Below, one piece after another: positions 8,181-57,638 of a DNA stretch of 64,000 nucleotides. This DNA is from Raillietiella orientalis (Eukaryota). The notes beneath the pieces are model-generated. The model worked only from the letters and a program-made list of their open reading frames with translations, had not been told where the DNA came from and did no database searches. The stretch is from contig JAYWIR010000010.1 of assembly GCA_036172245.1 (NCBI GenBank), positions 3,596,001-3,660,000 on the forward strand. Reading direction: 5' to 3'. Both the position numbers and the translations under genes were made by a program. Every line of letters begins with the position of its first letter. The stretch's first letter is position 1.

Positions 8181-8785
8181 CTAGAGGATCTAAGAGCAGG
8201 TGGATGTTTGAAGATCGGAAAGCTTGATCAGAGAATTCACTTTCGGTAGACGCATGGGTCGCAGATTCATCGCTGGTGTTCTGATGCTACTCCTCCATGG
8301 AAAAACTTCCGAAACAGGAGAAAACCCACGTGCCACGTCGGACAGCTTCGTGTCATCACTTCCTGGCTGCTGAAGACACCTGTGGCTCTCCGACGGCCGC
8401 TTCACGCACGCCACTCGATTCGACCTGCCCAAGAACTTGCAGGAGGTTCTCGATACGGGAGGAGTCCTTGACGCGCATTCCAAACCTCTGCGCCCGGAAT
8501 CTCTTTCTCTACCTTCCTCACCATAATCCGGCCGTCCTCATCGAGAAAAGAAAAGTAGGAGCCGGCGGCCGCCGATCGGCCGATGCCGGTAGGCGACTTG
8601 AAACTCCATGAGAACGCAGGTGCTCCGCAACCGGGGCCGAGTGAACACACTCGACGTTGGGCGGGCGTGTGAAAAGGGTGGAGTAGGCAGGAGACCGAGT
8701 ACGGGAAACTTTGCGTCCTCTTCTCGGCTCCGATGAGAGCGCTTGCTGAAGAGTGGAATCCCTGGTAGCTTGGGATCTCACATTA

Positions 8786-16812: not shown

Positions 16813-19800
16813 CTGAAACAAATTAACAAACATTACCGGGAGTGAAGAGAAATCACACGTTCATGAAGAGGATTCGAAAATGATCATGGATCAGTGTACC
16901 AAATTAAATTTGTTACTGTGCTTTTCCAAAACTAGAAGTTTCATCAACGACCACCAACTGCATTTTTTTTTTTTTAATCAGTAAAGACTTCTCCGATCAA
17001 ACAAGAAAAAAAGAGGAGATTAATTTTAACAAAAAACGAACAAACAAACGAAGTTGATCTTTGTAGGTCAGAGATGACTTCGAGATTCGAAGACTCAAGA
17101 GAAAGGTAGACAGTTTCAAAAAATGACGGATGAAGCAGAAGAAACTCACCATTTGTGGTAGCCAACATATCAGATATAATAAGGACAATATGCCCATCAT
17201 CCTGGCAAAGACAACGTCTTGCTTATACAGATTGCCTTTGTGGACTGTCACTGCTGTTTGGCGAACACAGTTCTTTCTTGTTTGGTAGAGTATCTGCATG
17301 ACCTTTATGTTTGAAGTCACCATGAGTACACAGATCGAACAACCTAACACGTTGTGAGGAGGCATGCGTTAAGCATCAAAATTGCTTTCATTTTGTACTT
17401 GAAGCAATAACAGAGAAATGAACACATTGGGCACAGTGAACACAAATGAACAAATGTGTTCATTTCTCTGTTATTGCTCATCAATGTCAACTCATCTAGA
17501 AAGCAGACTTTCTTTTAGTTGTTTGAGAAGAGCAAAAAATACGGAGACAGAAATGCCGTGTTTCTAGAACGTTTCTAAATTAATGGGTAGTCCAACAAAA
17601 CTTGCACCTTTAGCCATGATTCACTCTTTCACATGTGAACAAACATACGCATTCAGATGTTATATTATTATATATTGTCAGGGGCCTCTTTCAGCTTGAA
17701 AATATGCTGACTGATCAACGGAAAAAGTCTGTCCAACACCAAGAGAAGAATACAACCTATCGTAACAACATGAGCTTAGTTTAGAAAGGGAAAGGAGGAT
17801 ATGAATTATTTTACAGAGTACGTGCATGACCTGATGTGGGAATGAAACAAGTAGTGAGAAATCTAGCGTAGGTTAATACCGGTTACAAGGAAAACGTCGA
17901 CTCACATAAGATTTTCACGTATTGAAGATGGTTTACTAGGGAAATGAGATTTTGCCTCCGGCTTTATTTTGTCAAGATCTAAGACACGTGGACGAGAACG
18001 ATCCCGCACAGACCACCTCCCCTGTAAGAAAGAGAAAGGGACGCTTTTCCACGTAGGACTAACATGTCAAAGATACATAGGTTGAACTCTGGATATAGTT
18101 ATGAATAATAGCAGTTTAGATTTTCACACTGGCTACTGTTTCTGGTTTTACATCATTTTCATTACTGTATATAAACGCCTTTTTTTTTTTTTTTAGTCGA
18201 TAAGTAATGTTTAGTTTGGGCTTTGACGACAATTTTAACCCCGTTGAGCTCTATGGACGCATCTCGTGTTTAGCAAATGCTTTTGCCTTGTCCACGCGAC
18301 ACGTGTTAACACTATCCATGTTTGAGATGGACACATGCACTTACGCTCTTATAATTCAGTCCCTTGGCAACGACAGTAAACAAAATTCTATTTATATCGG
18401 CTGACTGTTGTCGGTGTTTCTCGGTATGGCATGTGATTTATCATACCGTTTACCATCTTTGTGATATCTTGAAAATGTGAATCAGTTATTGGTTTATTCG
18501 AATTGTAATTTTTATATAAATAATATATGTTTGGGGAAAGTGAAAATATTTTATTTAATGTGGCGTAAATGAACAATTACAATAGTAACTTCATGTTAGT
18601 CAGTCTGCACCTCGACGGAGCACGCGGTACGCGAAAAAGCCTTCCGTCCAACCGCGACTCGCGTGCCGTCAACACGGAAGGTCAAAATCTGATGAGTCCC
18701 TCACCCAAAGGGTTAATTAACTAAGGAGATCAGCTTAAAAGCTGATCGTCCTTGAGTCTTGCTTAGTACGAGCTAGCATGAGTGTTAAATTAATGGAAAC
18801 ATATTCTATATCTGAAGGACAAGTATGGACTTTGCAAATAATTTTCACATAAAAGTGAGCTGTGACAAGAGACAATTAGGTGCTTCTAGGAAGCGAAGTC
18901 TTTGATTAGGAAGGGATGAACATCACTAGAGTCAAGTTTTTCAATTGCCAAAAATCCGTGACAGGCATGCCGCGTGTCTTTTTTTTGTGACGTTGGCTTA
19001 ATTGTTTTGGGGAAGATCAAGTTCGTTAACAAAAAATATATCATCAAACCCAAGACGCAGATTGAGAGAAGGATAAGGGTGAACTACTACAGAACTACAG
19101 AAGGACAAGTTTATTCTATCTGAATTCGAACAGGATTTCAATTGCGACTTTCTTGGAGGAGAGTAAGTTGGACACTGGAGTGTCGAGCAGGACCTCGAGC
19201 ACAAATTGCTGCGGGGCTGTCACGACGAAATTAGCAGACTCGAAAATGGATGGAGTGTGTACCTACACAGAGGATCGGTCGACTGTTTTGTGTCACGATG
19301 CTAATGAGCAGTTGGTGTTGCAGATCGCATACACAAGTTCATTTGGGGCCCACACTCTAGAAAAATATCTCTAGTCAAAACCTCCAGCGTGTGTGTTTTG
19401 TTTCCCTTTCAAAGCTCCAAACAGTTTGAAAGAAAGTTGGAAAATAGGTTGTGGAACCGAGTCAGCTAACTATAGGGTTTCACTATCGCTGCAGGGATGA
19501 TTTCATAATTATGGATCTAGTGGGTGAGTGAGCTGAGTTGTAATTAGTAGGAAGAGAGATACAAACTAAGTATTCATAGGATATCATTCGTGACTTTAAG
19601 ATCATGACTGTGAACGATGAAGTCTGTTGGAAAACAGTAAGCTGCACCTTGATCCTGCTATGTCATCAAAATAGTCGGCCATTTAATAAGTGCTTCGTGA
19701 TGTTCAATTTGAAACTCCTGTGAAAGTGCAATCAGGAATGTGGATGACATGATGTGTTTCCACCTGTCAATGTTTGGGCTGTTGAAACATCAAGGCGTCG

Positions 19801-22800: not shown

Positions 22801-23819
22801 AAACTGAAACAAAATGCTTAAGCATTTTGTTTGAGTTTCCGATGAGGCGAAAGGAACCAATGAAACCCAAGCAATCATTTCCTTTCCTCCTCTGCAAAAT
22901 ATTCTTCACAATTCGTTCTGAATGACAGCATGGCGCACAGAATAACCAAGAAGAGGAAAGAGTTAATTTGAATCGGTTAAGCTCTGCCCTTTCCAAGAAC
23001 CATTACCTATACGAATAAGAGCTGCGCTCTTTGATCCTGGAGGGAGGTGATGAAGCTTAAAGTGAGGAGCTCTTTAAAAGCAGAGAAGACACCGAGGGAT
23101 TGGTGACTCTGGACTCCATCCTTGTTTAAACAAATAGACGTTGGCGCATCCAACTCTTCCTTAAACTGTCGAGACGCCTCTTGTCTCGTCAATCATAGGA
23201 GAAGGTGGGTGCGATAGACCCGAGAGGTTAAAAGCCTAGACATTGCCAGTCAAGTGAACAAAAAAAAAAATTCCCAGTGCAGCCCTGTAAAAGATTTCGC
23301 AAAGCTTTTGGGGAAGGGATGGAAGGCAACGGGAACCCTCGGAAGAACGCGAGTGGAATCTCCCTCGAAGAATAGCCTATCCCTAGGTTGCAGGGTCACT
23401 TGTTAAGCGAATAAGAAAGCAATATGAGTCTTTACTCTTTGATAGACGTAAGGCTGGGAGAACGTGACCCATCTCTCTACGGCCATCATGGCCACGATGC
23501 TTCCAGAGCACAAGCTGAAGCATCTGGTCAGCACATGGAACGAGCAGACAACTCTTGAGAAGGCAAACTCTCTCGAGAACAGCGTTGTAGAGCTCTTGAT
23601 GATCCAGTTTCCTGCCAAGGCAGCCGTGTCAACAACAGTAAGGCATTTCAACATGAAGACGCACTTGCTCGTTTTCTTCTTCTCGGTCTTCCAGAGAACG
23701 ATGAAGGCTGCCATGTTTCCCAGTATACCCACCAAGGAGTAGCACAGAGTGAAGATCTGGAAGAAGAATTTTTCGTGAGATAAGGATGCGAGGGATCGCC
23801 GTAGGAGTGTTGGGAGCAT
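16621..23819 (-). CDS. Rhodopsin-class GPCR, arthropod prostanoid (prostaglandin) receptor-like; join(23436-23819, 21554-21746, 17150-17343, 16621-16812), ~320 aa
   Basis: Four exons with GT/AG boundaries and compatible phases (0,1,0) give an open 963-nt CDS with seven hydrophobic segments: GILGN, LTVVD, MAVERW, MPIVGVGLY, CVRYKFA, CWLPQM, INPFIY. Start codon uncertain (an upstream exon is possible). Confidence 0.88.
17150..17343 (-). CDS. GPCR coding exon 3 (TM5-ICL3-TM6)
   Basis: Acceptor ttag (phase 1), '(G)CSICVLMVTSNIKVM..FARMMGILSLLYLICWLPQM', donor gtgagt. Confidence 0.88.
17403..17478. repeat. Perfect 26-bp inverted repeat, 24-nt spacer (GPCR intron 2)
   Basis: agcaataacagagaaatgaacacatt (17403-17428) / aatgtgttcatttctctgttattgct (17453-17478). 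Confidence 0.95.
19400..20700 (+). mobile_element. Possible very degenerate gypsy-like remnant in GPCR intron 2
   Basis: Weak motifs only: 'PVEQRPGDLRF' (PVxQRPRRLPF-like) and protease-end-like text near 19570-19610. Confidence 0.22.
21554..21746 (-). CDS. GPCR coding exon 2 (TM4-ECL2-TM5 start); not in the ORF track
   Basis: Acceptor tctttctag, 'RICNRNICIATFTLMAVSLITCAMPIVGVGLYYNASLPLSKRCVRYKFATKPVDIAYAFFIFSW(G)', donor gtaagt. Confidence 0.9.
23436..23819 (-). CDS. GPCR coding exon 1 (TM1-TM3)
   Basis: 'VGILGNMAAFIVL..MLKCLTVVDT..MMAVERWVTFSQPYVYQR' followed by donor gtaaag. Confidence 0.88.
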
Positions 23820-25183
23820 GCAAAAGATCTCAATCAGGAACTCATCCAAACGCTTCCTCTCAAGGGAAAGGAACAGAACTTGGATTCGAGAGCGACCCGC
23901 GGGATGCCTGAAGGGTCGCTTCTCCAAGAACAAGAATATGGAGTCCGTTTGTTTCCCGCAATGTCAAGGCCGCGAAATCTCTCTTGCGTGCAGGGAGTGA
24001 GAGAAAGCTCGTAAGTGTTCTTCCTGAGGGAATCCAAACTCTCTTTTCTCGCAACACGCCGGTGGGTGTGGGTTCAGTGGAGTTGGGTTCCTTAATGGAG
24101 CGAAAGAGCAATGAAGAAGGCTCTCCCTGGATTAAATGCTGATCATGAGCTTCCTGGATGTTCGATAAGGACTAGGAGTGAAACAGCATCAGACCCCATG
24201 TAGAGCCATTCACCAATATCCGAATGCATTCTTCTTCCACAGGCACCTCCGATTCCCGCCGGAAGGAAATGAGCGCTAGAATTACTTGCAACCCAACCAC
24301 TCCTTAAGACCCGGGGTACCTTGCAAGAGAACATGACCGGTCGCAAAGAATGTCAGTCTGGTGGGGGTCCCTCAGTTTCCCTCAACAGACTACAGTCGCT
24401 ACCGGAGGTTCCTCCAGGTTCCAAAACAGAATCCTTTCAAAGCGCGCGGGGCTGGACAAACTCTGCTCTTTCCTCCTGAAGGTGTCTTGCAAAGGAAGAT
24501 CTCGCAGTGTATCTGTGCCTCAAAGTTTGCAGGCCGGGCACCGTTGGCAATGCAGACGATGATGGCCATGGTCATCCATCATGCCACTCTTCGCACTACT
24601 GATCCACTCGAGAGGAACTTTTTCTCGCACCGGTTTTCAGAAACAGCTTGGTTGCCTGATTTTCCTGCTGCTCATTGGCTTCACTTCCGTTTCCGCAAGG
24701 GATACACACGCGTTGCTCGGGGAATGAGCTCCGGAGGATGGTTTTTCCACCTTCTCCTACGTCAAATAATCTATCTCCCAGAATGGGACCTTGCGCTCCC
24801 GACAGAAGTAACTGATCCAGAGGTGAAAACCGATCTTGACCATTTGGGACTCTGTTTTGATTAGCCTGCTCCTAAAAGAATAATCACCGGAACATCTTTG
24901 AAAGAAAAATCGGTATCTAGGGACGGAGGGAGGGAAGGATAGAAGTGGTGATGGCAAGGATTGGGCCAGACGAGATCAGTCTTACACGAGCGTAGAAAAA
25001 ATTTAGGGAAAGCGAATCCGGAGCTTCAGACCTGCGTTGTTTCAGACTGCCTCGAGATGATTTTCTCAAGTTGATTCTTCGAAAACCAGAGCAGCAACAA
25101 CAACAAAAAAAAAACTTCGAAATCCTCCCTAGCCCTCTTGGAACTGCATGACCGAAGTAGGGTGGCAACTGAAGAGTAGAATA

Positions 25184-29866: not shown

Positions 29867-30011
29867 TCAGAGTTTCTGCCGGAACGCGACGCATGGTGCC
29901 ACACGCAGGAGCCTTAGCCACAAAACCTCCTACGCGGGCTTTGAGTGAGAGGTTTTGTGGCTAAGGCTCCTGCGTGTGGCACCATGCGTCGCGTTCCGGC
30001 AGAAACTCTGA
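29867..30011. repeat. Perfect 63-bp inverted repeat, 19-nt spacer
   Basis: 29867-29929 is the exact reverse complement of 29949-30011. Confidence 0.97.
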
Positions 30012-31651: not shown

Positions 31652-33595
31652 ACTGTGCACGGTGTGCTGCTGCAACACGGCGGCACCCTGAGCTCCCTCC
31701 TCTTTAGCACCTATTTCGAATCGGTACTGAGAACTTACAGGGAGACGCTCATGCCGCGCGAATATTCCGGCACGCCTGCCATGGCAGCCGATCTTCTGCT
31801 GCTGCTCCCCATGTCCACCCGGGCATCTGCATTCGAGGGTTTCTTCGAGCTGCTCAGCTGCGGGACGGGCTTAAGGGTGAACAGGGCGAAATCGCCCGTG
31901 GTTCCAGTTGGTGCGGCGTGGGCAGGACGGCCGGACTGGGTCTGCTTGGGGATCCCCACGGTCGGGTACTTGAAGTACCTGGACGTTCCGTTGTGGGACT
32001 TGTGCGTCGCAGAAGTCTGGTCCGGCCGTCTTCAAAAAGTGGAATAGCGCTCGGTCCACCAAGGAGACAGGTTTTACTCGCCGGAACGGGCTGCAGTGTG
32101 GAACGCGTTTGCGACTTTCCTCCTCTGCCATCTGCTTTGTGTTTGCTTTGCTCCTGCGGCCATCCAAAAGAGGACCGCAGACCTCCCCAGAAAAGCACTG
32201 TGGAGCTCAAGGAGGTCCAGAGTCCGGTTAAAGGACGTTTGCTCTCCACGTGGACTGGGCTTCCTTACTCTGGGGGGAGCGGATGGAGCATCAGCTCCAA
32301 TTCCGAAGAATCGTACTGGCGTCGAAGCTGTAGGCAATATCATTGTGCACAAGGACACGCATTCTTGCAAAGCAAGCAACCGGCTGCGGGGGCTGACTTC
32401 AGTCTTCGTGTCTATTGATCGAAGTTTGAACCATGTTGGTTTGCAGCTCCGAAAAATGGCTGCCTTCCTCCGGAGGAATCCTTGAATCTCCGTCCTACCT
32501 GCAAACTGGACTGCCTGGCTGCAGGAGTCAGTTTCCGCATGGGGAGAGATCCACGGCTCGAGCAAGGCGGAGTATATCTGTCTGCGGAACACCAGATGTA
32601 CTCGTCAGCCCTTGAGGGAGATCTTCGGAAACACAAGGAAGCTGCTTTGGGCGTCGTTTACCCTCCTTGCACCAGTGCTACCCTTACGATAGGAAGCAAG
32701 TGACAGCGACCTTCCGGCCAACTGGGAAGTGACGTGTACCATCAACAATAGAAAAAATGCAAAGAAAAAGTGCGTGGAGATCTCGGGAGCTGATGGATGC
32801 CGCGACCCTGATTGTGCCCCCAAGAGGACGCCTAAGCTGGGGAGAGCTACTATAAATTCCTCTGCAGGAGGTGCAGTGGCCCCAGTGTGCTGGAACAGTG
32901 CAACCCCCATTTCAAGTGGCAAGAGTCGGCGTTCCTGCTGTTGCAATGGGGCCTCCCGTGCAGTGCCCGCCGACACCATTGGACCCGGGGGAGTGCGAGC
33001 TCGAGCTGCAACAGGTGCGGAGAAAAAGAGTCACTCACGCACCTGCTCATGGGTTATGTTGCACTCCATCCCTTGTATGAACGCTTTACCGCGTCCCTGA
33101 GGATCCCCGAGGGCAACTCCAGGGACGTTTTAAAGCTCCTCTTCCTGCTCAACTCCCTCACGTCAGCCGCCTCCCTAGCAGCATTTGGCTGCCCACGCGG
33201 CGGGATCGTGGCTGCATGGAACAACGCCAGAGTCCAGCACGGAAGGCACGCCATCTATTTTGCTGTCCTCTTCATGACGATAGCGTCAAGATGACCCCAT
33301 CTGGGGGCTTTGAAATAGGAACTTGCCGGCATCCTGCGAAGGATGCAGAGGACTCCCTCCAGCACCCGGTGATCCCTTCCCGAACCCTCCCAATTTTTTG
33401 TTTATATATTTTTTTGTTTTATTTTTCTTTTTTTTTGTTTCCCCTTCCCCTCTGCTGCCGAACCTCGCCGGCCTGCGCGCCGGTTCTCGGCAGGTTCTTT
33501 TCAGTATATTTATGACGTGGCAGGACCAAGAGTCCTGCCACTGACCTGTATGTTTATTTTTTTTTTATAAATAAACGTTTCGGCTCAACCGGATG
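31652..33595 (+). mobile_element. 5'-truncated, frameshifted L1/Tx1-clade LINE copy
   Basis: 'LSSLLFSTYFESVLRTYRETL', 'VNRAKS', 'YLDVPL', Zn finger 'CNRCGEKESLTHLL', 3' UTR hairpins and terminal motif at 33570-33595. Confidence 0.9.
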
Positions 33596-35191
33596 CCAAT
33601 CGACTACCCTTCTGCAAGACCAGGTAGGTCTTCACGATCGAAAGTTTTTCACTGTATTTTCTTAAGAATTTTGCCTTCCTCTTTCTGCTTCTCTTTTTAT
33701 GTCCAACTTCCAAACTCATTCGAAGACGTTTTCGTATGTTCCTTGAAGAACATCCTCCACGTCTTACTCCCTCATAATCAGGCACACAGTCCGTGTTGTT
33801 CGTGTCTTCTAAAACATAATTTAAAACTTTATTCACTTATCTGCTGCTCACCATCTCATTCCTGCCAAGCACTGAATGAAGATAAACGACTAAACGATGG
33901 TCGGTCAACCGAATATTGACACCTCTGACATGGTTTCACGAAATGGAACTCAACGTGGTGGATTCTTGCTGGTCTGAGAATTATGACCACCATGCAGGTA
34001 ACAAGGAAGCTACTATTATTTTAATTTGGGATCTCCGTTCCCTTTCTGTATTAGCTGATTTGCTTTCTCCTTGACGTGAGGATCGCTCCTCTTTGTGCCG
34101 TCTACCTTTCGAATTTCGCTTTCTCTTTTTAAGAACAGGTTTTTGCACACTTGAGGACTTGTGTGCAAAATGTGCCTTGGGTGATTGTGAACGTCAGTTC
34201 TATAAGCAGGTAGATTTTTTCATGCGTTCTTTCCTTTCGGTGGAATTCAAGCAATGAAGTGCACCTTCCTCTTCTGGGATAGTGAATTTCTAGAAATTGG
34301 AACAATCTTTCAGTTTTTGCTCAGCCCCCTGATTGCTTGGTTTTCCAATTTTTTCAAGAGGAAGGAAAGGAAGCAGATGGTAGAAACGAGTGCGACCTTG
34401 GCTGTGGCAAAGGAAACTGAACTCTGTCAACTCTGGTAGCATCTACGGTCTTGCTTCCATTACGCAAAAGGTCGCAAAGAAAGCAGAACCTTCACGCAAA
34501 GACGTAACCGTTCCAACATTTCGATGTCTTTACGGATCAAAAACAACGAACAGCAATTTTTCACCTACGCGCTCCCCAGAAGAAATGCAACCTTTCTGTA
34601 GTCATTGGGATCCCTGGATTATTTTTGGATTTCAGTATGGTCGTTGTTCTAAAGTCGAAGAGGACTCAGAGAAGATCCATAGCCTTCTTGGAGAGTCATT
34701 GCATGAGCACTACAGAAGACGGAAAGCTGCTCATCAGTTTCGACTGAGATTCAAGGGTGCAGAGCCCTTTCAGAAGAACGCTGCTTTCAGGATTTTTCCA
34801 AGTGGGAAACATCAGAGAAGCGAGAAACAGTTTTCTCTTCGATTCCATCTCCTCCCTCTTGTAGAAATGTTTCTTCCCGGTCAAATCCATATGGCACCAC
34901 TACCCACCTCAAGGACAACATCTGGCTTCTTTCAAATTTTGCATCTTTTTTGAACGACAAACGCGTTTTCAAAAGCGCCACATGGACCGTTTCCAAATGT
35001 TGGTGATCAAGGATGCGATTTTCCTCGTATGCTTTCTGGATACTGTGAGCTCTTGGAAACAGACCATGACACTCTATCTTGTTTAGAAAAACTCTTGAAG
35101 AACCACACTGAGATAATAATAAACACTTTTCTGTACACTGCCACGATCGATAATAAAGCTTTTCATGATTTGCTTGTTTCTTCCCAACTCG

Positions 35192-35540
35192 ATAAGCAAG
35201 ATGTTCAAAATTGATAGAGAAACAATATATTGGTGGAGAAAAAGGAGAGAAGAAACAGGAAGCATAAAACCATCTTCAGGCTATCAAAAAGGGCATAGCC
35301 ATAAAAGCAAAGACCTAGGCAGTTTTGCCAATTTTCTAGATGAAAATCGAGATATTACAGTTGAAAAGATTGAAAAATTTGGCAAGATGTGCAAGGAAAC
35401 AGTGTATAGCTATCTCAAAAAAGTTAACTATGCATATAAAAAAAAACTTTACCAGGAAAGCGATAAAGAAAAACGCAAGGAATTAATTAAAAAAGTAGCG
35501 AAAATAAAAGAAGATTTAGTATTTATAGACGAATCAGGCA
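35192..35540 (+). mobile_element. Bacterial-type IS630 family transposase fragment (N-terminal HTH to first catalytic Asp)
   Basis: 'ISKMFKIDRETIYWWRKRREETGSIKPSSGYQKGHSHK..LKKVNYAYKKKLYQESDKEKR..LVFIDESG'. AT-rich; A9 run (35438-35446) at the position of the IS630 frameshift window; no TIRs seen. Confidence 0.75.
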
Positions 35541-36707
35541 AAGTCACATCTGCGTCCATCGTCTGGAACAAAATCCGTTTTGTTACTTATTGACCAGCAA
35601 TTCAATGATGTGCACAAAAGTCTACTCTTTTCTTTCCTCTTATCTCTTTCCAATGGCTAATGAATTTACTGTTGAGTCATGGAAGCATCTGTCTAAAATT
35701 CAAGTTTTTCCTTTTTATTAATGATTGCTGACTGCAGCCTGAATTCACTTTTTCTTTCTTTGTTTCTGAATTGGCTCTTCCATTCCTGCCAGTGCTGTTC
35801 GTCAGAGTTTATGAGGGAACGCCGAGACGCACAGACCCAACCAGACCTCTAGGTGATGAGGCAGAATGAGACGCACAAGATCTTTAGGGACCATCCGCTG
35901 GACTTCCTGCTAGCTAAAATTCCAAATTTTTCTAAAACAGAACTGACCCAAAGAAGGGAGTGACAAGATATCGGTTGAAGCTCGGAATGATCGCCTACCT
36001 TCGAACCTCTGTGGCAACCCTTCCGCAGCCTTCTCTTTCCTCGACTGAATTCTTCTTCCTCAATGCATTTTCAATACATGGAATCGTAACTAGATGCTCG
36101 TGCACTTGCATCTTCCATCAACTGTTCCAACAGAGTTTCGTCACCATTCCCCATCTCTTCTTTCCTTCTGCAACAGCGACTTTCTTCCCCATCAGGTCAG
36201 GAGGGGACTTGGGCGTTTTTGGCGCTTCACAACTCCCTGCAATTCTTGTATTTGGAAACAAGGAAGTATCAACGCTTAGCTTGATTTGTGGATGCCCTAG
36301 GCATTCTGACTAGCCCCTGCTTCGCAACTCGCCCTCAGTCGTATCTTATCCCCTTTTTTGATGGGTACTGCCAAATGTCTTCTGGATTTTTAGTTCCCTC
36401 ATCAAGGCGTCGCCTTCAGATCTCAGGAGTTCCACGACGGACCCTCATCAAATTATCCGGCACGCCTTTGGACGCGAAGTGGAGGAACATTCCTTCGAGA
36501 CCGCTATCCTCCTAGTTCGTGATCAGTGATCAGATCCTAACCCGTGATCAGTCCGGGACAGACGTAGGCTGTTCCCGGACGAACCATGGAGTACAACCTG
36601 CTCCTCACGAGCACATAGTGGCAGTCGCAAACAAGGTTTGCGATGGAGGGTCACGAGAATCCTGGATTCTCTTCTGACCAGGGGATGGGAAGGCCATTAA
36701 AGTACGC

Positions 36708-38867
36708 CTGGAGCCCTTACGGTCGCAGTCGATTTGCATAAAGCTCTCGACTGCGTCGACCAGGAGCTCCTTCTGGAGCTTCTGGAACGCATGGGGTTTC
36801 CGGCCGTCTTCCTGGCCTACCTGCGCTCCTGCTGGCGCTTCGCGTACATGAACATTAATTTCAGCGACCGGCACGTGTACGGCGTGCCGGTTCGTCGTGG
36901 AATTCGGTAGGGACACAGCCTCAACCCTCTGCTCTTCAGCATCTACTTTGAGTTGGTGCTGAGAACATACAGGGAGACTTTGGCAACCCTGCCGAGCCTG
37001 TGTCCCAGCACGCCTGCCGTGTCGGCCTACGCCGACGACCTTCTGCTCCTGCTACCCAGATCCACCCCGGCATCGGCGCTCGAGGATTTCTTCGAGCTGC
37101 TGCGCCGCGGGACAGGCCTGGAGGTGAACAAGACGAAGTCGTCCTTGATATTTACGGACTCGTCGCGGGCAGGACGGTCGAACTGGATTCGCTTGGGGAT
37201 CCCCACGGGCGAGCACTTCAAGTACCTTGGCGTTCCGTTGGGAGACTTCTGCGCAGCAGAAGCCAGGTCCGACCGTCTCCAAAAGGCATCGCTGGCGATC
37301 GGTCCGTTCCACGAAGGCAAGTTTTACTTGCAGGAACGGGCCGCGGTGTGGAACGCTTTCGCAGCCCCCTTCCTTCGCCCCTTACATTTTGTGTGTCCCT
37401 CCCCTCCCAAATCAGACACGGACAAGGGGCTTCATCAGGCCCTTTGGGGCAACCGGAGGTCCCGCGTCCGACTTAAAGACTTGTGTGCTCCTCGCAGGGA
37501 CGGTGGACTTGGTCTCTTGACGTGTGAGCGTATGGAGCGTCAGCTCCAATTTAGGAAACTCGCCCTGGTGGCGAAACACTGGATTGCGCCGCGGTGTGCG
37601 CCTACACGACTTCTCGCCTACAGCGCAACCGGCTGCTACGGATTGACCTCCATCCTAGTGGCTAACGACCGTAGCCTGAACCATTGTGGGTTTCAGCTAC
37701 GGAACATGGTTGCCTTGGTGAGGGGAAACCCGTGGATCTCCTGCGGCCCCGCAAACTGGACTACCTGGCTCCAGGAGTCCGTTTCCACTTGGGCAAAGAT
37801 CAACAGCTCCAGCGATGTGGACTTCTCCTGCCTCCGTCGAGGCAGGTACGCTGACCAGCCCCTGCAAGAGATCGTTTCCAACCCACGTAAACTTCTGTGG
37901 ACTTCATTCACCTCCCTTGCCTCCGTGCTGCCCTCCCTCAGAGAAGCTAGGGACAGCCAAGAGGAGGCAATGTGGGAAGTGTCCTCCTTCATTGGAGGCA
38001 GGAAAAAGCTAATGAAGGCGTGGACGTCCAGGGAACTAGCGGACGCTACACCCCCGAGTGTCCCGCCGAATGGACTTGTGCGCTGAGGCGAGCTGCTGGA
38101 TATACCTCCGGAGGAGGTGAAGAGGCGCCCGGCCTCTTGGGACAACGGCATCCTCTCTTTGGATTGGCAGGAGACGGCGCTGCTTGTGCTCCATTGGGAA
38201 CTTTTAAGCAGAGCACGTCTGTCTCACTGGACATTAGGGAAAATGGATGCCAATTGTACAGAGTGCGGGGAAAGGAAGACCTTCCCCCACTTAATAATCG
38301 AGTGTGTTGCCCTCCGCTCATGTGGGATCGACTCTTGTCGATCCTGAACATTCCGGTGGGCGACCCTAAAAACATTTTTCTTCGCCTCCTGATGCGGGAC
38401 GCCCTGCCAGCCGCCGCGTGTGTTGCAGTTCTCTGCTGCATACGCGGAATTCTGGATAAGTGGACCGCGTCAAGGAGATGCCGCAGCAGTCGGGATGCCA
38501 TTCACTGAGCAGTCATCTCTATGGAGAAGGCTTCTCGTTGGCGCCGGCTGAGAAAAATTCTGTCTGCACTTGTCCGCATCCAAAACCGGATGCAGAGGCC
38601 TCATCACGGCGGACCGTGATACCTTCCCTTACATCCCCTCCGCATTTTCCCCCCTTGTGTTTTTGTTTTTCGTTTTTGTTTTTTTCTGGTTTTCCCGCTC
38701 CCTTCGCCAGTGAAGAGGACCTTACCGTCCTCAGGGTTGATACGGACAAGTGCCCAAGACAGTCAGAACGATGTGATCTGACTGAAAAATAACTCAAAAA
38801 AACAAGACTTTATTATGAAATTTCTTTGTAAAATTTCAATAATAAGAGTCTCGGCTTACCCGGGTGA
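36708..38867 (+). mobile_element. 5'-truncated L1/Tx1-clade LINE copy (RT to 3' end)
   Basis: 'VDLHKALDCV', 'AYADDL', 'YLGVPL', 'LCAPRRDGGLG', Zn finger 'CTECGERKTFPHLIIEC'; internal stops; terminal motif 38841-38867. Confidence 0.92.
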
Positions 38868-38869
38868 AA

Positions 38870-39453
38870 AACTTGCTGGGAGTCCGGTTGTTCCAAGCCC
38901 TGACTGGCCAACCCGGACTGCCAGCTTTGATGCTCGACCCCGGCTCGATACTCCCTCGGTCTTCGGATGTTGGGTTTACTAGAAAAGCGACGAGCGTGGA
39001 GCTACGATCTCTCGTTCCTCACGCCCTCTCCGAATCCTGCGGGAAGACGTTGCATCGGGTACTGTTTGCAGAAGTCATGGACTGAGCGTTTCAACCGGTT
39101 CCAGTCCTCGAGATTCTGCACGCTGAAGTCTCGCTAGAACTCGCAGAGATGCTCCGCAGCTCTCGGGAGGCTCAGACAGTTCCCTGGGAGATGCCACGCG
39201 TAATTCGGGGGACTCCTGTCGTGCGGACGAACTGTCAGCTCCATCTGGGAGTGGTCCGACAGCGCCTACCACACCCTGCGTCGCCTTCTCACCCGTGCGC
39301 ACAGGTGGTTGTCGAGGATGACGTGGTCGATGTATGTCCTCCACCCCGGCCTCTCCAGCCAACGAGTTGAGCGAGTGTACGGACGCGCACGCCTCGTTGG
39401 TCAGGTTGTGCTGGCCGTTCGGCGCCCCTGATAGCAGGCGAAGATTGAAATTT
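38870..39453 (-). mobile_element. Internal LINE ORF2 fragment (APE end + linker)
   Basis: 'NFNLRLLS..NEACASVHS..TYIDHVILD' and 'LPAGFGEGVRN..WQSG' align to the ORF2 at 55329-57605. Confidence 0.85.
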
Positions 39454-39454
39454 C

Positions 39455-41283
39455 TCACCTGGTCACGCTGGGGCGTTTATTTTATGGAAAAATAAACCAG
39501 TTGGGAACCAAGTTCCCAATCGACGACAACAGAGAACAAAGGGGAGGGTCCACCGGCAAGCAGACCGGGATAAGGGAAGTTCGGAATGGGAGAAGGGATC
39601 GAGGGACAACAAAAAAAGAAAAATAAACGCGGTGGGATGGAACGGGGATCTTTGAGTTCGCTACGAGAGGCACGGGGATAAAAACAAAACACCGGGGAAG
39701 CTGCAGAGCAATCGGAGATAGGGAATGAAAGGGGATGGGTGAAGATGAAAATAATGAAAATAGAGAGTGGGAGGGAGCAAGGGTCACCGGGCTCTGCCGT
39801 TCCTAACTGTCCATCAACCGGCGGTGGATGCCGGCGATCTCGTTCGCCTCTTCGTCCCGGTGAGGCCACCTCACAGCCACCCTTATGTATGCCATCCTGG
39901 TGACCCCCCTTCGCTGCGCGGTCGTCTCAAACACATGGTGGGTTGTGACAATGGCACGGATGCAACTCATGGTTGCAATCACTGCGCCCGTCTGGCGGTC
40001 GGTGGCGAAGCACTCGCAACCCTGTTTGCGTGTCACCACCGCCGGTTCCGATCTTGCGGTTTCCCTCTCCGGTGTGTCGCTGCTCTGATGAGAGCGAACA
40101 CGTGGATTCGCTGACGCCCTGCAAATACTCCGACCTGGCGGCAGGAGAAAGTGAGGCCGTGGGACCAGCTCACCCAGGTCCCGTCGGAAGTTACCCGCTG
40201 CCGAGAGTTTCAGAAGATCAAAGGAAGAACACTGGAGGCGGTGGGTAGTGAACTGACTATGTTGGCCTACCCAGCAGCCAGCCCCTTAGCCGCAGCGGTG
40301 TCCTCCGCTATCAAGGTACATGACACTTGCCTACCGGTGAAGTGAGAGGTTTCCAGCGAGATCTCGGCCCGCAGGAAGCCTATCGGTGGCTGGACATCGC
40401 GTGAGCTGGCTGACGCGGCAACAGCAAGAACCGCCTCCAAAGGACTGGAACGTTGGGACGAACTCTTCTCCATTCAGCCCGAAGAGTTGGAAATACCCCG
40501 GGAATGCCCATGGACAGCAAGCTGCTTCCCCTCAAGTGGCAATCGGCGCTGCCTATACTGCACTGGGGTCTTCCGTGCAATGCGAGCCGGACCACTGGAC
40601 GAGGGAAAGCACATCGCCGAACTGCGCCAGGTGTGGAGAGAAGACCTTCCTCCACCTCATAGTGCAGCCTGTCGCCCTCCGGGACTTGTGGGAACGTTTC
40701 TTTGCGTCCCTTCCACACCCCGTGGACGATCCCAGAGACTCCTTGAGGCCTTTCTTCGTGCGGGGCGCTATGACGCCCGCAGCCGCATTCGCAGCGCTGT
40801 GCTGCCTGCGCGGTGCCGTCGCGGAGAAGTGAGACGCCGAGGGTGATCAGAGCGACGGGGGAGCTGCCCTGCAGGCCATGCGCTTCCTGCAGATAGCTTT
40901 GAGGTGGCCCCACCTGGAAAGGGAGAAGGAGGAGCTCGCCGACATCCTTCAACGAACGCCGAGGCCTCACCCATCATGAAACGTCAACCCTTCCCTCCCC
41001 CCCCAATTATTTTTTTTTTTTTGTTGTTTTGTTAATCTTTATTGTTTGTTATAGTTTGTTTTCTTTTTGTTCTAATTTTGTTTCATTCCTCTTCCCCTTC
41101 GTGTATGTGATGGACCTCGCCGTCTCTTTCTCTTTTTTCCTAATGTAATAACTGGAATCGATGAGCCTTTTGCCTCCAGCGATTCCTGCAAAAGGAATAA
41201 ACGCCCCGGCGCACCCGGGTGTGAAATCACTGCGCCCGTCGACAGACCTCCTGGAGCAAAGAACCGTCGGAGCACATCTCGGA
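39455..41283 (-). mobile_element. Short 3' LINE copy interrupted by a nested insertion
   Basis: Reading frame 'RDVLRRFFAPGGLSTGAVI' (41225-41283) resumes as 'ATMSCIRAIV..IHRRLMDS*' below 39977; terminal motif at 39455-39481. Confidence 0.88.
39993..41224 (+). mobile_element. Nested 5'-truncated LINE copy with 16-bp TSD
   Basis: TSD aatcactgcgcccgtc at 39977-39992 and 41225-41240; Zn finger 'CARCGEKTFLHL'; terminal motif 41196-41224. Confidence 0.9.
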
Positions 41284-41295
41284 GATCGAAATTTT

Positions 41296-42198
41296 TCACG
41301 CGGCCATGCCGGGGCGTTTATTAAAAATAAACCAGTTGGGAACTTTTCTTCCCAGCCGACGACTACAAGAAGCAAACAAGAGAGTCCATCGGCACGCAGG
41401 CTGGGAAAACGGAAATCCGGAACGGGGGAAGTGATCGGGGGACAACAGAAAAAACAACATCGGTGAGAGGGGTAGGGATCTTTGGTGTCGCTCCGTACTC
41501 TCCGGGGAAAAAAAAAATAAGAGTACCAAGAAAGTAATGGAGCAATGGAGACGGGGGATTAGGAAAAAAATAAAATAAAATAAAGGGAGGGAGGGGACAA
41601 GGTTCACTGGGTCCGCCGCTCCAAGTCGTCAATCAACCGGCGGTGGATGCCAGTGATCTCCTCCTTGGCTTCCTCTTCCAGGTGAGGCCACCTTGAAGCT
41701 GTCTTGATGTGAGTGGCTGCCATCCTGGTGACCTCCCTTCGATGCGCGATGATTTCCTGCACCTGTCGGGCCGAAACGATGGCGCGGATGCAACGCATGG
41801 TTGCAATAACAGCGCCCGTCGAGAGGCCTCTCGGCGCGAAGAACCGCTGCAGCACGTCTCGAGCGGTGTCCTCCTGGTGCAGGAATGCTGTTTCCAGCCT
41901 CCGCGACAGTTCTTGGAGGATGCTGCAGTCCAAAAGTCCTGGCACAGTTAGGGGAAACAACCCCTCTGGAAACTCGGTGCCACCGCTCGTTGCACCGGAA
42001 TCCTCAGTGAACAAAAAGCAGCACGTCCTGTTTCCAACTCAGCGGAAACACTGATGTGTTTACAGCAGTTTGGCGGGACCACTAGTTCTTCGGGAGCAAC
42101 ACTCAGCTGTTCGTACCATCGAACAAGTCCCGCAGCAGTTGTCCGTGTAGTGGCAGCGTCTGCCAACTCGAGCGCCTTCCAGCCAACTAAGAGTTTTG
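41296..42198 (-). mobile_element. 5'-truncated LINE copy (ORF2 C-terminus + 3' UTR)
   Basis: 'ELADAAT..EELVVPP..LHQEDTARDVLQRFFAP'; terminal motif 41296-41322. Confidence 0.88.
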
Positions 42199-42202
42199 TT
42201 TG

Positions 42203-43450
42203 TCACCCGGATATGCCGGGGCATTTATTATAAAAATTTTTTACGCACACGAAAAAAATTCCTTAATAAAGTCATTAGGAATGTTTCATTCGTGGTAGAA
42301 CACTTGGTTCTACCACGCTCGAGAGACTTGGCATAAACCGGTACATAGACCGGTGAGGCCCTCTCCAAAGGCGAAGGGGAAGAAAAGAACAAAACACAAA
42401 TAAACAAAAAGAATTGAAAAGGGGAGGAAAATGTTTTTAGGGGAGGTTGGAGGTGGGAATAGATCACTGTATACCTGGATTGGTCCTCTGCATCCTGTTA
42501 CGGACGCTAACAAGTGCTGGACGGATATTCCAGAGTCGGGGCCATGGGGCGGAGTGCTTCATGAAGATTTCCGCCCAGTGGATGGCTCCCCTGCTGTTTT
42601 GGCCTCATCTGTTCGCGGCCCACCTTGCCGCTATTCCGCGTACACAGCAGAGAACTGCTAGAGACTCTACGGAGGGTAGGGCATTACGCATGAAGAGGAG
42701 CCGGAAAATGTCTTTCGGGTCGCCTTCTGGAATATTCACGATCGACAAGAGTCGATTTTAAAGGTCACGGAGGGCGACACAGTCTATTAAGAGATGCGGG
42801 AAGGTTTTCCTTCCGCCGCACTCTGCACAACGGGCATCCACACTTACAAGTGTTCAGTGAGAGAGGCGTACTCTGCATAGGATTCCCCGACGCAAGAATA
42901 GCAACGCCGTTTCTTGCCACTTTATTGGGAGGGTGCAACTGTCCTCACACGGTGGGGGCTACTTCCCCTCCTGCGGAAGCATTCCGAGCAGCTCGCCCCA
43001 GGGCAAAACTCGTTTAGGAGGGAAACTCTGGGTCTCAGCGTTCGCTAGCTTCCGAGTTGTCTTGTACCTTCAAGAGTTCTTTCCTGCCCCCGATGAGGCA
43101 GGACACTTCCCACAATGCTCGTTCCTTGCTATCCCTAGCGTTCCTGAGGGAGGGCAGCACTGGGGCAAGGGGGATAAAAGAAGTCCACAGCAGCTTGCTT
43201 GGGTTGTTGAGCGTAGGTTCCTTGTCGGAGGCAGACGTATTCCGCCTCGCTCGAGCTGTTGATTTTTCCCCATGCGGAAACAGACTCCTGAAACCAGGCA
43301 ATGCAGTTCGCGGGGAGGTAGGAGATCCACGTGTTCTCCCTCACCAGGGCAGCCATCTGTCGCAGCTGATGACCATAATGGTTCAGGCGGCTTTCGCATG
43401 CCACGAGTATCGAAGACAATCCTTTGCAGCCGGTCGCTCTGCTGGCAAGA
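42203..43450 (-). mobile_element. 5'-truncated LINE copy (related to the 36708-38867 subfamily)
   Basis: 'QLRQMAALVRENTWIS..QESVSAWGKINSS', 'NPSKLLWTSF..WEVSCLIGGRK'; terminal motif 42203-42229. Confidence 0.88.
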
Positions 43451-43862
43451 GCTTAACCGGAGCTTTTATTTTTTAAATTCTACATTATTTGTTATATTTA
43501 AATTTAGTCTTTTGGGTATTGCTTCTTCCACAACACATGGTTCTGGCAATGTTTTTTCACTTGTCCTTACCGACCCGCTGGCGGGTGTGGTACTCTCCAC
43601 AGGCGAAAGGGACGGCAAAACCAAAAAAAAAAGAAAACAAAAGAAAAAAAAGAAAAAACGCCGGGGGGACAAAGTTTTATGGAGTGGGGAGGAATGGGAT
43701 GGGATCACTGCTCGCCGGGAGGAGTCCTCTGCATCTGGTTTCGGATGCGGGCAAGTGCCGGTTGAATTGCCCTTAACCGGTTCCATCGGCATGCCTTCTC
43801 CATGGAGAGGATTGCCCAATGAATGGCGTTCCGGTTTCTATGTCCTCTCCTCGATGCATTGC
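43451..43862 (-). mobile_element. Short LINE 3' end fragment
   Basis: 'TCPHPKPDAEDSSRRAVIPS' nearly matches 38565-38625; AATAAA plus only the first arm of the terminal stem. Confidence 0.8.
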
Positions 43863-45056: not shown

Positions 45057-45916
45057 AGTTGACAGTTGCCTACCGGCAAGGTGGGAAATCGCCTGCACTA
45101 TCGCAGGAGCAACCCGACCCATGGGCGACTGGAGGACTAGCGAGCTGGCAGACGCCGCCACGCCTCGCAACATCCCGAAGGGACTCCTTCGGTGGAGTGA
45201 ACTCTTGAGTGTGCCCCCCGAAGAACTTGTGGTCCCTCCCTAGTGCATGAACACTTCTGTGTTCCTCCTTTCTTGGAAGCAGGACATCATCATGCTGGTG
45301 CATTGGGGTTTCCATTGCAGCCAGCGCGCTCACCTAGTTTCCGTGGGAGTTGTCTCCTCGAACTGTAAAAGGTGCGGAGAAGCAGAAACGCTCCAGCACC
45401 TGCTCTTCGACAACGGTGTTCTCCAAGGACGTGACGGAGGCTGGCTTCAGCTCTCCTGCACCAGGGGGACACTGCAAGGACATTAATGCTCCGCTTCTTC
45501 ACGCTAGGCGGCCTGTCGTTAGGTGCTTTCGTCGCTACGATCTGTTGCATCCGCGCCATCGTCACGGCCCGCCGCCAGTTGGAGTCACAGGAGATTTTTC
45601 GGGAGGTCGCCGGTTTAGCCGACAACATGATGTCGGCTACCAGGTGGCCTCATCTTTCAGAAAACATCAGAAAGGAGATCTCCGGCATCCAACGCCGATT
45701 CTGAAAGGAACGGCCGAACCCACAGACCCAGTCGTCAACTCCCTCCTATCTCTTTTTGTATTTTTTGCATATATGTATTTGTGGTCCCCTCCCTCCCGTT
45801 CTGGACTTTCGGTGTGACCGACCTGCATTTCGGGGAGTCCTCTCCTCGAACTTCCCTTTGTCTGGGAACTTTTGTCTGGAAAATTACTGGCTCATTTCCG
45901 GAGCAATTTCCGGATG
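45057..45916 (+). mobile_element. LINE 3' portion (related to the 53811-57913 subfamily)
   Basis: 'DSCLPARWEIACTIAGATRP', Zn finger 'CKRCGEAETLQHLL', 'EISGIQRRF*', 3' UTR with a degenerate terminus. Confidence 0.88.
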
Positions 45917-48834: not shown

Positions 48835-49523
48835 GCATTCCCTCTTCTTTGGAAACAGGACGTACTTTTGCTCGTGCATTGGGATCTCCATTGCAACCAG
48901 CGCGCGCACCTAGTTTCCGGGGAAGTTGCTTCCCCCAACTGTGGACGGTGCGGAGCAGCAGAAACGTTCCCGCACCTTCTTTTCGACTGCGGTGTCCTCC
49001 AAGGACTGTGGCGGAGGCTGGCTTCAGCTCTCCTGCACCAGGGGGACACTGCAAGGACATTAATGAGCCGCTTCTTCACTCCAGGCGGCCTGTCGTTAGC
49101 CGCGGTTGTCGCAACGGTCTGTTGCACCCGCGCCATTGACAAGGCCCACCGACAGCTTGGAGGGACGGGTGGAGTCGCAGGCGATTCGTCGATAGGCCAC
49201 CGGAATAGCCGACGACAACATGACGTCGGCTGCCAGGTGGCCTCTTCTTCCAGAAGACGTCAGGAAGGAGATCTCCGGCGCCGGTTATAAAAAGATGGAA
49301 CGGCCGATACCAAAGACCCCTGTCCCCAACCCCTCCATATCTATTTTTATATTATATATATATATATATATTGATTGATTGATGGTCCTTTCCCTTCCGT
49401 TCCGGACTTTCGTTTTTTCCGACCTGCGTCTCGGGGAGCCCTCCCTTCGATCTTTTGTATCCCTTGCCTGGGAACTTTGTTCCCAGATACTTTTTAAATA
49501 AATGTCCCGGCGCACCCGGGTGA
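48835..49523 (+). mobile_element. 5'-truncated LINE copy (Zn finger + 3' UTR)
   Basis: 'CGRCGAAETFPHLLFDC..LHQGDTARTLMSRFF'; terminal motif 49497-49523. Confidence 0.9.
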
Positions 49524-50032
49524 AAAGCATCTCCCACTCGAATCCCATGGATGTTTTCGCCGTTCTGGTTCCTTGGAATTTCTACACATGGGATCCACGG
49601 AACGGCTCCAGGTTTCAGGATGACTATACCAAGAATGCCTCACTCACTGGCATTCCCGATTCGATGGGATCTGGTGGGATCTGACGGCTCTGGAAACTTT
49701 CTTGATCAGCTGACAGCAATGATGAGCACACAAGAGCAATAACAGTTAAGCAGCCGATAAGGATCAGTACATAGTGCTCGCACGTTTGAGGAAAAAATAC
49801 TCAGTAATAAATGCGTTAATTTCATTTGCCGAGTTCCCAAGGTGAGTCTTTCTCGTTAGGGGACTTCCAGAAAGGAAATCTTGGATTCGTTGTCATGGCG
49901 GCGACTGGTGTCGATCAAAATTCCGAATACCGAAATCTCGAAAGATTACCTTTTTTTATAATCATTAATTATTCTTATTCATAATAAGCATACGTATTTA
50001 TTTTTTTTAAAAATGTGCTTATTATGAATACT

Positions 50033-50143
<111 letters not shown>

Positions 50144-53700: not shown

Positions 53701-54036
53701 GAAAGGAAGCGAAGCGACCGAGTCCAGTCAGGATGTTGGGAAATCGGGAAGCGTTGTTTGGGGTGGATTCCAAGATGCGATTTCCATGGAACGCAACGAC
53801 ATCCAGCTGATTATCACCCGGGTGCGCCGGGGCGTTTATTAAAAACTATCCGGGAACAGAGTTCCTGGACAAAGGGAAAAACAAGAGACGAAGGGGGTGG
53901 GATCCCCGACACGCAGGTCGGTATGCCGAAAGTCCGGAAAGGGAGGGAGGGGACCACAAATAGACTACTATAAAAAATAAAAAGAAAAATATGGAGGGCA
54001 GGGGACAGGGGTCTTTGGTTCGGCCGTTCCTTCCTT

Positions 54037-57000: not shown

Positions 57001-57605
57001 TCCGGCAAAGCACGCATCCCGGGATCGTCGGCCAGCAAATTCGAAGCGTGCACGGACGCGCACACCTCGTTCACCAGCCGCTTCTCCCGGAGACGGTGGG
57101 ACTCCTCCGATAGCGCGTGGACGTTAAAGTCCCCGGCTAAGAGGTGAGCCACGTCGGGGCCGGAGTTGCTCAGCCAGCGGTCGCGCAGTCTCTCGAAAAA
57201 CTCCAGTTTCTCGGTGTGACGCGCAGAGCCGCTCGGCGCGTACACGTTCGTGATGACAAGGTCGATCGATTCGGACCACTTGAGAACAAGTTGGCCCACA
57301 CGACCTTCCTCGTCGAAAAAAAAGCTCCGCACCGCCCCCGCCACCCTGCCCCAGACAAGGAATGCCACTCCGCAGGTATTCTGGGAGCCTGACCTCCAAT
57401 GGAGCGTCCCGCCTGCGCGAACTTCCAGATCGGCCGCTTGCTGCTCGGAGAGTGCGTGAATCTCCTGCAGCAGGGCCAGATCGAAGTAGCGCAAGACGTT
57501 GGCAACCAATCGCCTCTTCTCGTTGTCCTGCAGCCCGTTGACGTTCCAACAGGCCACTCGGACGCGACGAGAAGATGCGAGACCGCGCATTGCTGCTATG
57601 GACAT
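54037..57605 (-). pseudogene. LINE ORF2: APE endonuclease + RT + CCHC Zn finger; open for 758 aa, then several frameshifts/stops
   Basis: WNVNGL, LQEIH, NVYAP, GDFN, SDH; KAPGEDG, WRPITL, DLRKAFD, QGDSLSPLLF, YADD, YLGVPL; AAPRQDAGLG; CKRCGEVETLPHLLLDC. Confidence 0.95.
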
Positions 57606-57638
57606 GGAGGTGCGTTCCTCGCCCCGTCCGGCGAGGCA

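Follow-up and report, generated by a model that had tools for sequence, protein, structure and literature searches.

Covarying hairpins in the structured 3′ tails of diverged L1-like LINEs from Raillietiella orientalis

All of the evidence presented here comes from one 64-kb window of Raillietiella orientalis DNA (the whole stretch analyzed, positions 3,596,001 to 3,660,000 of contig JAYWIR010000010.1), which contains the 3′ regions of 11 long interspersed nuclear elements (LINEs), labelled copies A to K. Downstream of the stop codon of ORF2, the second open reading frame (ORF), the 3′ untranslated regions (UTRs) of these elements run, in 5′ to 3′ order, through a C-rich tract, a T-rich tract, and four hairpins that we call a, b, c, and d; the two tracts had been described in an initial annotation of the window and are visible in the UTRs. 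We find that hairpins a and b change sequence between copies while base pairing is kept, and that the tails end at a fixed nucleotide. Our preferred reading, to which we give a probability of roughly 0.55, is that a and b belong, with two further modules, to a structured 3′ tail that is carried by an L1-like LINE, is of the stringent type, and is bound by the ORF2 protein (ORF2p). It is reasonable to regard the hairpins as a cis-acting RNA domain, as the initial annotation had done, and we infer the binding by ORF2p from the analogy with LINEs whose tails are recognized in this way.

The 3′ regions were recognized from a tblastn map made with the ORFs of copy E and from a reading of the junctions. 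LINE fragments are nested at 31-60 kb of the window, with one more at 9 kb, and the majority of the 11 copies are truncated at the 5′ end and retain the 3′ end, copy J being broken off inside hairpin b and copy K inside the terminal hairpin. A Pfam search of stop-to-stop ORFs finds Exo_endo_phos (E-value 3.8e-13), RVT_1 (7.7e-21), and a weak zf-RVT motif (0.006, under the Pfam cut-off). The top solved match of a 769-aa piece of ORF2 is human L1 ORF2p (E-value 2.4e-42), with R2 proteins at 5e-17 or worse. Judged by its APE endonuclease, reverse transcriptase, and C-terminal zinc motif, the family is an L1-like LINE. Its nearest database proteins are one 64% relative on a short contig and others that are no more than 27% identical. 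Over the C-terminal part of ORF2, identity to copy E is about 78% for D, 64-79% for J, 44-64% for G and I, 35-52% for C, and 31-36% for A, B, F, and H, so several subfamilies, well separated in sequence, are present among the copies: {A,H}, {F}, {B,K}, {C}, {D,E,J}, and {G,I}. In a separate observation, an inverted repeat occupies the last ORF2 codons at homologous sites (33329-33346 and 53.99-54.05 kb), immediately upstream of the C-rich tract; it reads GCATCC...GGATGC in A, H, B, F, and K, and CCGGC...GCCGG in E.

Support is much stronger for hairpin b than for hairpin a. A perfect b stem of 8-11 bp occurs in 6/11 copies, and when equal 149-nt regions were dinucleotide-shuffled 1000 times, the shuffles that matched it numbered 0 for A (10 bp), 1 for F (11 bp), 10 for H (8 bp), 2 for D (8 bp), 6 for G (8 bp), and 17 for B (8 bp). 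The remaining five copies have no significant perfect stem by this test (1000 of 1000 shuffles match in C, 316 in E, 110 in I, 433 in J, and 496 in K). Imperfect versions of the hairpin are present in E, with one A·C mismatch, in I, with 6 bp, and in K, with 7 bp and one mismatch, and its place in copy C is taken by a different 7-bp stem with a 19-nt loop. In an alignment of nine copies (A2), 81 of 90 cells are paired, partly by construction because each row is centred on its own hairpin, and nine of the ten pairs are changed on both sides (30 cells); none of 500 shuffles reaches this pairing, and slid controls give 24-45%.

The cleaner evidence of covariation in hairpin b is that from stems whose homology is plain. 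Copies A and F are alike at 20 of 25 nucleotides, and four of the five differences make up two compensatory pairs. Among D, E, and G, C-G/U-A and U-A/C-G exchanges are found at the two outer pairs. Mean column identity of the hairpin is 56%. The turnover of sequence under conserved pairing that had been claimed for this hairpin is thus borne out, with one of its sites misassigned: the hairpin at 38816-38838, taken to be the b of copy B, is real, yet it forms one portion of an extended A/U-rich stem reaching over the AATAA signal, and the homologue in copy B is 38760-38784 (CAGTCAGAAC-GATGT-GATCTGACTG).

Hairpin a, a 5-bp stem closed by a 6-nt loop of consensus CTGCGT, is recognizable at the homologous place in 8/11 copies (Table 1). 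Three of these sites, in D, J, and I, are additional to those in the initial annotation, whose ten coordinate ranges for a and b all hold the hairpins assigned to them when the sequence is read at each. A gap-free alignment of the eight copies (A1) has standard pairs in 36 of 40 cells, and at two of the five pairs both partners have changed: D, E, and J have A-U in place of G-C, and F has U-A in place of C-G. This agrees with the compensatory stems proposed earlier. Shuffled columns equal the observed paired fraction or covariation score in only 1 of 500 trials, and registers with the 3′ partner displaced keep 20-50% of cells paired. Mean column identity is 74%, and the stem is decayed in I, D, and J. 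A 5-bp stem is unremarkable alone, being the best perfect stem of the E region and matched there by 316/1000 shuffles; the case for hairpin a therefore comes from positional homology, from the conserved start of the loop (C10 and T11 are invariant), and from the outer stems in A, H, and F.

The two downstream hairpins are closely tied to the end of the element. Hairpin c pairs an upstream UUUAUU with the AAUAAA poly(A) signal; it is found in A, G, H, and I, where the signal is paired with an upstream (G)TTTATT, and in B it lies inside a longer stem. Hairpin d is the terminal hairpin, CCCGG-CGCAC-CCGGG, followed by UG and three nucleotides ending in A. Its helix is paired in 91.4% of cells in seven copies, with one of five pairs changed on both sides. 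Mean column identity is 53% over the whole a-to-d stretch and 84% in nine copies (alignment A6) over the last 31 nt (AATAAA-N3-CCCGG-CGCAC-CCGGG-TG-NNA-A), a gradient rising to the 3′ end as expected of a recognition tail.

For A, H, and F the RNAalifold consensus consists of exactly four successive hairpins (a, together with its outer stem, then b, c, and d), 9/36 pairs being changed on both sides; for D, E, G, and I it contains b and a short version of c. Whole-tail folding beats shuffles in A, H, F, and B (z-scores of -5.25, -3.14, -4.31, and -2.70, respectively). Copy H, to which A is most closely related, is 79% identical to A through hairpin a, after which similarity is lost and their b sequences differ; A and F have hairpin b in common, in flanks that are unalignable. 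The modules look exchangeable between subfamilies. The modular, structured 3′ UTR that had been proposed is common to well-diverged subfamilies, given that the ORF2 C-termini of A, B, F, and H are the ones only 31-36% identical to E.

The exact 3′ end can be read from target-site duplications. Copy C is flanked by a duplication of 16 bp (AATCACTGCGCCCGTC, at 39977-39992 and 41225-41240) and copy H by one of 10 bp (ATGTGAGATC, at 9636-9645 and 8774-8783), which put the last nucleotide of the element at the third position past GGGTG (the closing triplet is TGA in C and ATA in H); in neither copy does an A-run stand between the element end and the duplication. Nine tails align without gaps through the element end, the third nucleotide after GGGTG is A in 9/9, and contigs of an independent DNA run (X1) lose their match at 53811, the same point in copy E. 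AATAAA is present in 8/9 tails (AATAAG in B), 20 nt before GTG and 23 nt before the end, and its distance to the element end is the usual spacing between a poly(A) signal and its cleavage site. Around E, A, B, D, F, and G, no target-site duplication of 8 bp or longer was found, and the sole match of at least 8 bp around copy I, an A/T-rich 8-mer, was not accepted as a duplication. Relaxed L1s typically carry a 3′ poly(A) tail. Copies C and H do not, and the duplications of these two copies, with the invariant register of the gapless nine-tail alignment, give the family the defined, poly(A)-less 3′ terminus of stringent-type tails.

These features can be assembled into a candidate mechanism. 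To judge from the spacing, the element's own AAUAAA would cause the transcript to be cleaved some 23 nt farther on, at the A that ends the element. If these tails work as those of stringent-type LINEs do, the folded structure would be bound in cis by ORF2p; hairpin d would be the anchor in all subfamilies, and the variable a and b may provide contacts that are subfamily-specific or serve as a scaffold. The nicked target would then prime reverse transcription at one set position, giving new copies without poly(A).

The module might instead serve 3′-end formation or RNA stability and not recognition by the reverse transcriptase, the hairpins presenting or masking AAUAAA, setting cleavage at the last A, and protecting the transcript end. 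Such a role would agree with an AATAAA invariant in 8/9 tails at 23 nt before the end, with the pairing of that signal to an upstream TTTATT in A, H, G, I, and B, and with the A that ends the element in 9/9 tails. It leaves unexplained, however, how copies start exactly at the cleavage-site nucleotide without poly(A), which needs positioning of the reverse transcriptase, and the place of the terminal hairpin, 3′ of the hexamer, is one at which cleavage factors need no specific structure. We consider this account unlikely as a replacement for recognition, and the two roles are not mutually exclusive.

Several observations weigh against a conserved recognition tail. The copies share ancestry, lie in a single window, and are in many cases decayed, so the independent compensatory events are few: hairpin a offers about 2 and hairpin b about 6-8. 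Hairpin a is absent or non-homologous in 3/11 copies (B, K, and C), and the distance of hairpin b from AATAAA ranges from 9 to about 75 nt; neither, therefore, is strictly required in a fixed geometry. In D, E, G, and I, RNAalifold favours a long-range a/d helix over the local hairpins a and d. Whole-tail folding is no better than shuffles in C (z-score of -1.40), D (-0.80), E (-1.47), G (-1.70), I (-0.53), and K (-0.70), so that the term ‘structured UTR’ is fair for four copies and amounts mainly to hairpin b in the D/E/G/I group. Folding of the antisense strand equals or exceeds that of the sense strand (z-scores of -5.24 in A, -3.90 in H, -5.56 in F, and -3.72 in B), and by our own count in the tables for hairpin a and the terminal helix, G·U cells (10) are not clearly above A·C cells (5). 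Finally, perfect hairpins are about fourfold over-represented across the window (36 vs 8.4 +/- 2.5 in 30 block-wise dinucleotide shuffles, counting stems of at least 8 bp with loops of 3-9 nt and excluding (AT)n microsatellite sequence, a long run of which lies at 50036-50140).

Nine of these 36 hairpins fall in the terminal 175 nt of the 11 copies, a combined 1925 of 63,790 nt (3%; binomial 9e-7), and the distal UTRs are about 11 times as dense in them as the remainder of the window (9 in 1925 nt vs 27 in 61,865 nt). The initial annotation had staked its claim on shuffled controls, which should not produce similar hairpins as often at the same position. This holds for hairpin b in six copies, which shuffles seldom match, and for the enrichment in distal UTRs; the hairpin excess in the window as a whole means that the shuffle test is to be read against a raised background. 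Strong hairpins outside the UTRs include stems of 12 and 13 bp in element E (55102-55133 and 59798-59828) and 11-bp stems in non-LINE DNA (10648-10672 and 22807-22832).

The background excess invites the explanation that the hairpins are functionless by-products of mutation, short inverted repeats made by template switching, in reverse transcription or in replication, and inherited by descendants. The window-wide count of 36 vs 8.4, to which LINE bodies and non-LINE DNA contribute, and the equal folding of both strands fit this explanation, and since one template switch can yield several apparent compensatory changes, so does the difference between A and H in hairpin b. It accounts poorly for the roughly elevenfold hairpin density of the distal UTRs, for the same order of modules in subfamilies whose proteins are only about one-third identical, for the single-pair compensatory changes between homologous stems (A/F and D/E/G), and for the conserved loop of hairpin a with its invariant C10 and T11. 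On this balance we think a purely mutational origin quite improbable.

The antisense z-scores, which equal or exceed those of the sense strand in A, H, F, and B, would also suit structures that act on minus-strand complementary DNA or on an antisense transcript, for instance as DNA hairpins that aid the priming of the second strand or as an antisense regulatory RNA. Several stems, though, pair only by way of G·U in the sense strand, which becomes an A·C mismatch in the complement (among them hairpin a of H and of G, and the terminal hairpins of A, H, and B). The counts are small, and we hold an antisense role to be very unlikely. A self-cleaving ribozyme or other catalogued RNA family, with nothing more in its favour than the presence of compact hairpins, is scarcely credible, as Rfam 15 gives 0 matches at gathering score and no UTR match at E-values up to 1, contrary to the self-processing suggested initially, and neither a multi-helix junction nor a conserved catalytic core can be made out. 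At that E-value Rfam yields only two microRNA-precursor-like matches, both lying elsewhere, at 29901-29977 (minus strand) and 17398-17489 (plus strand); they are far under the gathering score (35.8 vs 90 bits and 33.9 vs 88 bits) and are probably chance hairpins.

A tentative extension of the recognition-tail model is that the tail adopts a compact tertiary fold, in which loop a (C-UGCG-U) kisses loop d (CGCA-C) and so brings the upstream module to the start of reverse transcription. Four bases of one loop could pair with four of the other, as UGCG:CGCA in D and E, as UAUG:CAUA in F, and, with one wobble, as UGUG:CGCA in H. Over seven copies, pairing is kept in 25 of 28 cells; two of the pairs are changed on both sides, both in F alone. 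The kissing helix alone does not beat shuffles (126/500), and one slid register reaches 71%. One changed loop pair lies at a CpG in both loops, where by our own reasoning CpG decay will often keep pairing by accident. We regard the contact as doubtful. A brief literature search for kissing loops in LINE tails turned up only papers that were unrelated or concerned long terminal repeat elements. If the contact were real, it would amount to a loop-loop-stabilized recognition domain in an animal L1-like LINE, with reverse transcription starting exactly at the element's own cleavage site and hence no poly(A).

Structured tails of comparable kind are known from other LINEs. Eel UnaL2 is an L2-clade LINE with a stringent-type tail. 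For two further members of that type, zebrafish ZfL2-1 and ZfL2-2, the cognate ORF2p is described as recognizing both the stem and the loop of the 3′ tail (PMC4176376). The tails in the present window resemble those of the L2 clade in having a conserved stem-loop at the extreme 3′ end and in ending at a defined sequence with no long poly(A). They differ in belonging to an element with an L1-like ORF2, in having four hairpins instead of one, in holding AAUAAA inside a stem, and in lacking short terminal repeats, the element end lying 3 nt past the hairpin. In the plant L1-clade lineage ‘monocot 1a’, Ohshima describes a conserved 3′ hairpin with compensatory stem mutations, which is read as a sign of stringent recognition (PMC3747384). 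As far as that description extends, the two families agree in being L1-clade or L1-like LINEs with a conserved 3′ hairpin, a variable but compensated stem, and conserved nucleotides in the loop or flank. The plant elements terminate in poly(A), and their one hairpin lies within the final ~45 nt, whereas the present family is without poly(A), has the extra upstream hairpins a and b, lies in an apparently animal genome, and has no sequence similarity to them.

The 3′ UTR of R2 keeps its structure across species while its sequence diverges. It is reported, in the accounts consulted, to be multi-helix and to be bound by the element's protein to start target-primed reverse transcription (PMC10499050, PMC12222951). 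The multi-helix 3′ UTR is thus a point of likeness, the protein binding being a feature of R2 as given there. R2 has a restriction-like endonuclease and is specific for ribosomal DNA, whereas the elements described here have an APE endonuclease and varied insertion sites, and their reverse transcriptase is closer to that of L1 than to that of R2. An R2-type element is ruled out by the APE domain and by flanks that are unrelated LINE fragments.

The initial annotation had called the domain possibly undescribed. This applies to the sequence family only: conserved, compensated 3′ stem-loops are already in print for L2-clade and plant L1-clade LINEs, to the extent described in PMC4176376 and PMC3747384, and there is accordingly no new class. 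Nothing is overturned, and a transposable-element specialist would expect such tails. The family would add an L1-like and apparently animal member to the LINEs whose tails are read by structure instead of poly(A), and it bears on the timing and the frequency with which template recognition was relaxed among L1-clade elements. Its natural covariation, apparently swappable modules, embedded poly(A) signal, and exact start could guide experiments on template selection by L1-type ORF2p.

The surroundings of the copies are those of a nest. Most insertions lie inside other LINE fragments, at differing ORF2 positions and in differing orientations, which speaks for a nest with no specific target site; site-specific insertion is ruled out by these flanks. 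Copies C (plus strand) and I (minus strand) stand tail to tail at 41196-41322, with 65 nt of LINE-derived sequence between them. The ORF2 of copy E (54037-57638, minus strand) is spread over three overlapping stop-free frames (55329-57638, 54857-55498, and 54037-54924), and by its reading frames this copy carries frameshifts and is not intact. A comparison of sequence words with sequencing runs gave one DNA run, X1, which holds a small share of them, and no RNA run. The X1 contigs cover only the LINE of copy E (53801-57955), are mostly less than 90% alike, and leave the flanks uncovered, so that related elements are present in another sample. In two of them the final ~30-110 nt of the tail are fused to a part of ORF2 that lies 570-810 nt upstream, which may reflect diverged UTRs or internal deletion of the copies; the X1 contigs yielded no linked variants of use for covariation.

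Within the 64-kb window, covariance model R1 and blastn find only nine LINE tails, and no short interspersed nuclear element or orphan tail. A terminal-motif scan of metagenome contigs returned 112 loci, none of which resembles the window by blastn; these look like chance matches, many of them similar to bacterial terminators. Protein-guided scans of viral and prokaryotic contigs found no relatives.

Table 1. Positions of the tail features in each LINE copy (coordinates of the 64-kb window; MFE, minimum free energy)
Copy	Feature	Position	Strand	Details
A	Hairpin a and outer stem	33455-33493	+	CTGCCGA ... CCGGC-CTGCGC-GCCGG ... TCGGCAG; in MFE and centroid fold; 16-nt core 33468-33483
A	Hairpin b	33517-33541	+	GTGGCAGGAC-CAAGA-GTCCTGCCAC, perfect 10-bp stem; in MFE fold
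A	Hairpin c	33552-33576	+	GTTTATTT pairs with AAATAAAC, perfect 8-bp stem; AATAAA 33570-33575 in 3′ arm
A	Hairpin d	33579-33598	+	TTCGG-CTCAA-CCGGA, then TG and CCA end; model R1 match 33570-33600
H	Distal UTR	8782-8925	-	a 8887-8902 (stem CTGGC, loop CTGTGT); b 8834-8854; c in 8812-8832 region; terminal hairpin; end ...GGGTG-ATA; 10-bp duplication
F	Distal UTR	42199-42365	-	a 42338-42353 (CCGGT-CTATGT-ACCGG); b 42291-42317 (11 bp); terminal loop CATAT
E	Whole element	53.8-59.6 kb	-	Most complete element; ORFs up to 59551
E	Distal UTR	53810-53940	-	a 53906-53921 (stem CCGAC, loop CTGCGT); b 53850-53868 (one A·C mismatch); AATAAA; terminal CCCGG-CGCAC-CCGGG
D	Distal UTR	49400-49527	+	a 49419-49434 (4/5 pairs); b 49468-49486 (8 bp); terminal hairpin
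G	Distal UTR	39451-39585	-	a 39553-39568 (stem CCGGT, loop CTGCTT); b 39501-39519; c 39475-39497 (9 bp); terminal hairpin with two C·A mismatches, CCGG to CCAG in both arms
I	Distal UTR	41292-41420	-	a 41389-41404 (3/5 pairs); b 41336-41355 (6 bp); c in 41310-41335 region; terminal hairpin with one mismatch
B	Distal UTR	38760-38871	+	b homologue 38760-38784; A/U-rich stem 38816-38838 over AATAA; terminal CTCGG-CTTAC-CCGGG; no hairpin a
C	Distal UTR	41080-41226	+	No hairpin a; stems GGAATCG...CGATTCC and TTCCT-GCAAA-AGGAA before AATAAA; terminal hairpin; end ...GGGTG-TGA, then 16-bp target-site duplication
J	Partial tail	45818-45876	+	a 45818-45833 (4/5 pairs); 5′ arm of b; cut or rearranged after loop
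K	Partial tail	43440-43585	-	Relative of B; imperfect b homologue 43525-43549; tail cut after terminal-hairpin loop

Two ORF fragments elsewhere in the window belong to other families. The fragment at 23406-23963 (minus strand) matches the rhodopsin-family domain 7tm_1 with an E-value of 2.6e-06, slightly under the Pfam cut-off, and points to a host that is an animal. The other, at 35123-35590 (plus strand), matches HTH_Tnp_IS630, the helix-turn-helix of IS630/Tc1-type transposases, with an E-value of 1.9e-04, and is probably the remnant of a DNA transposon.

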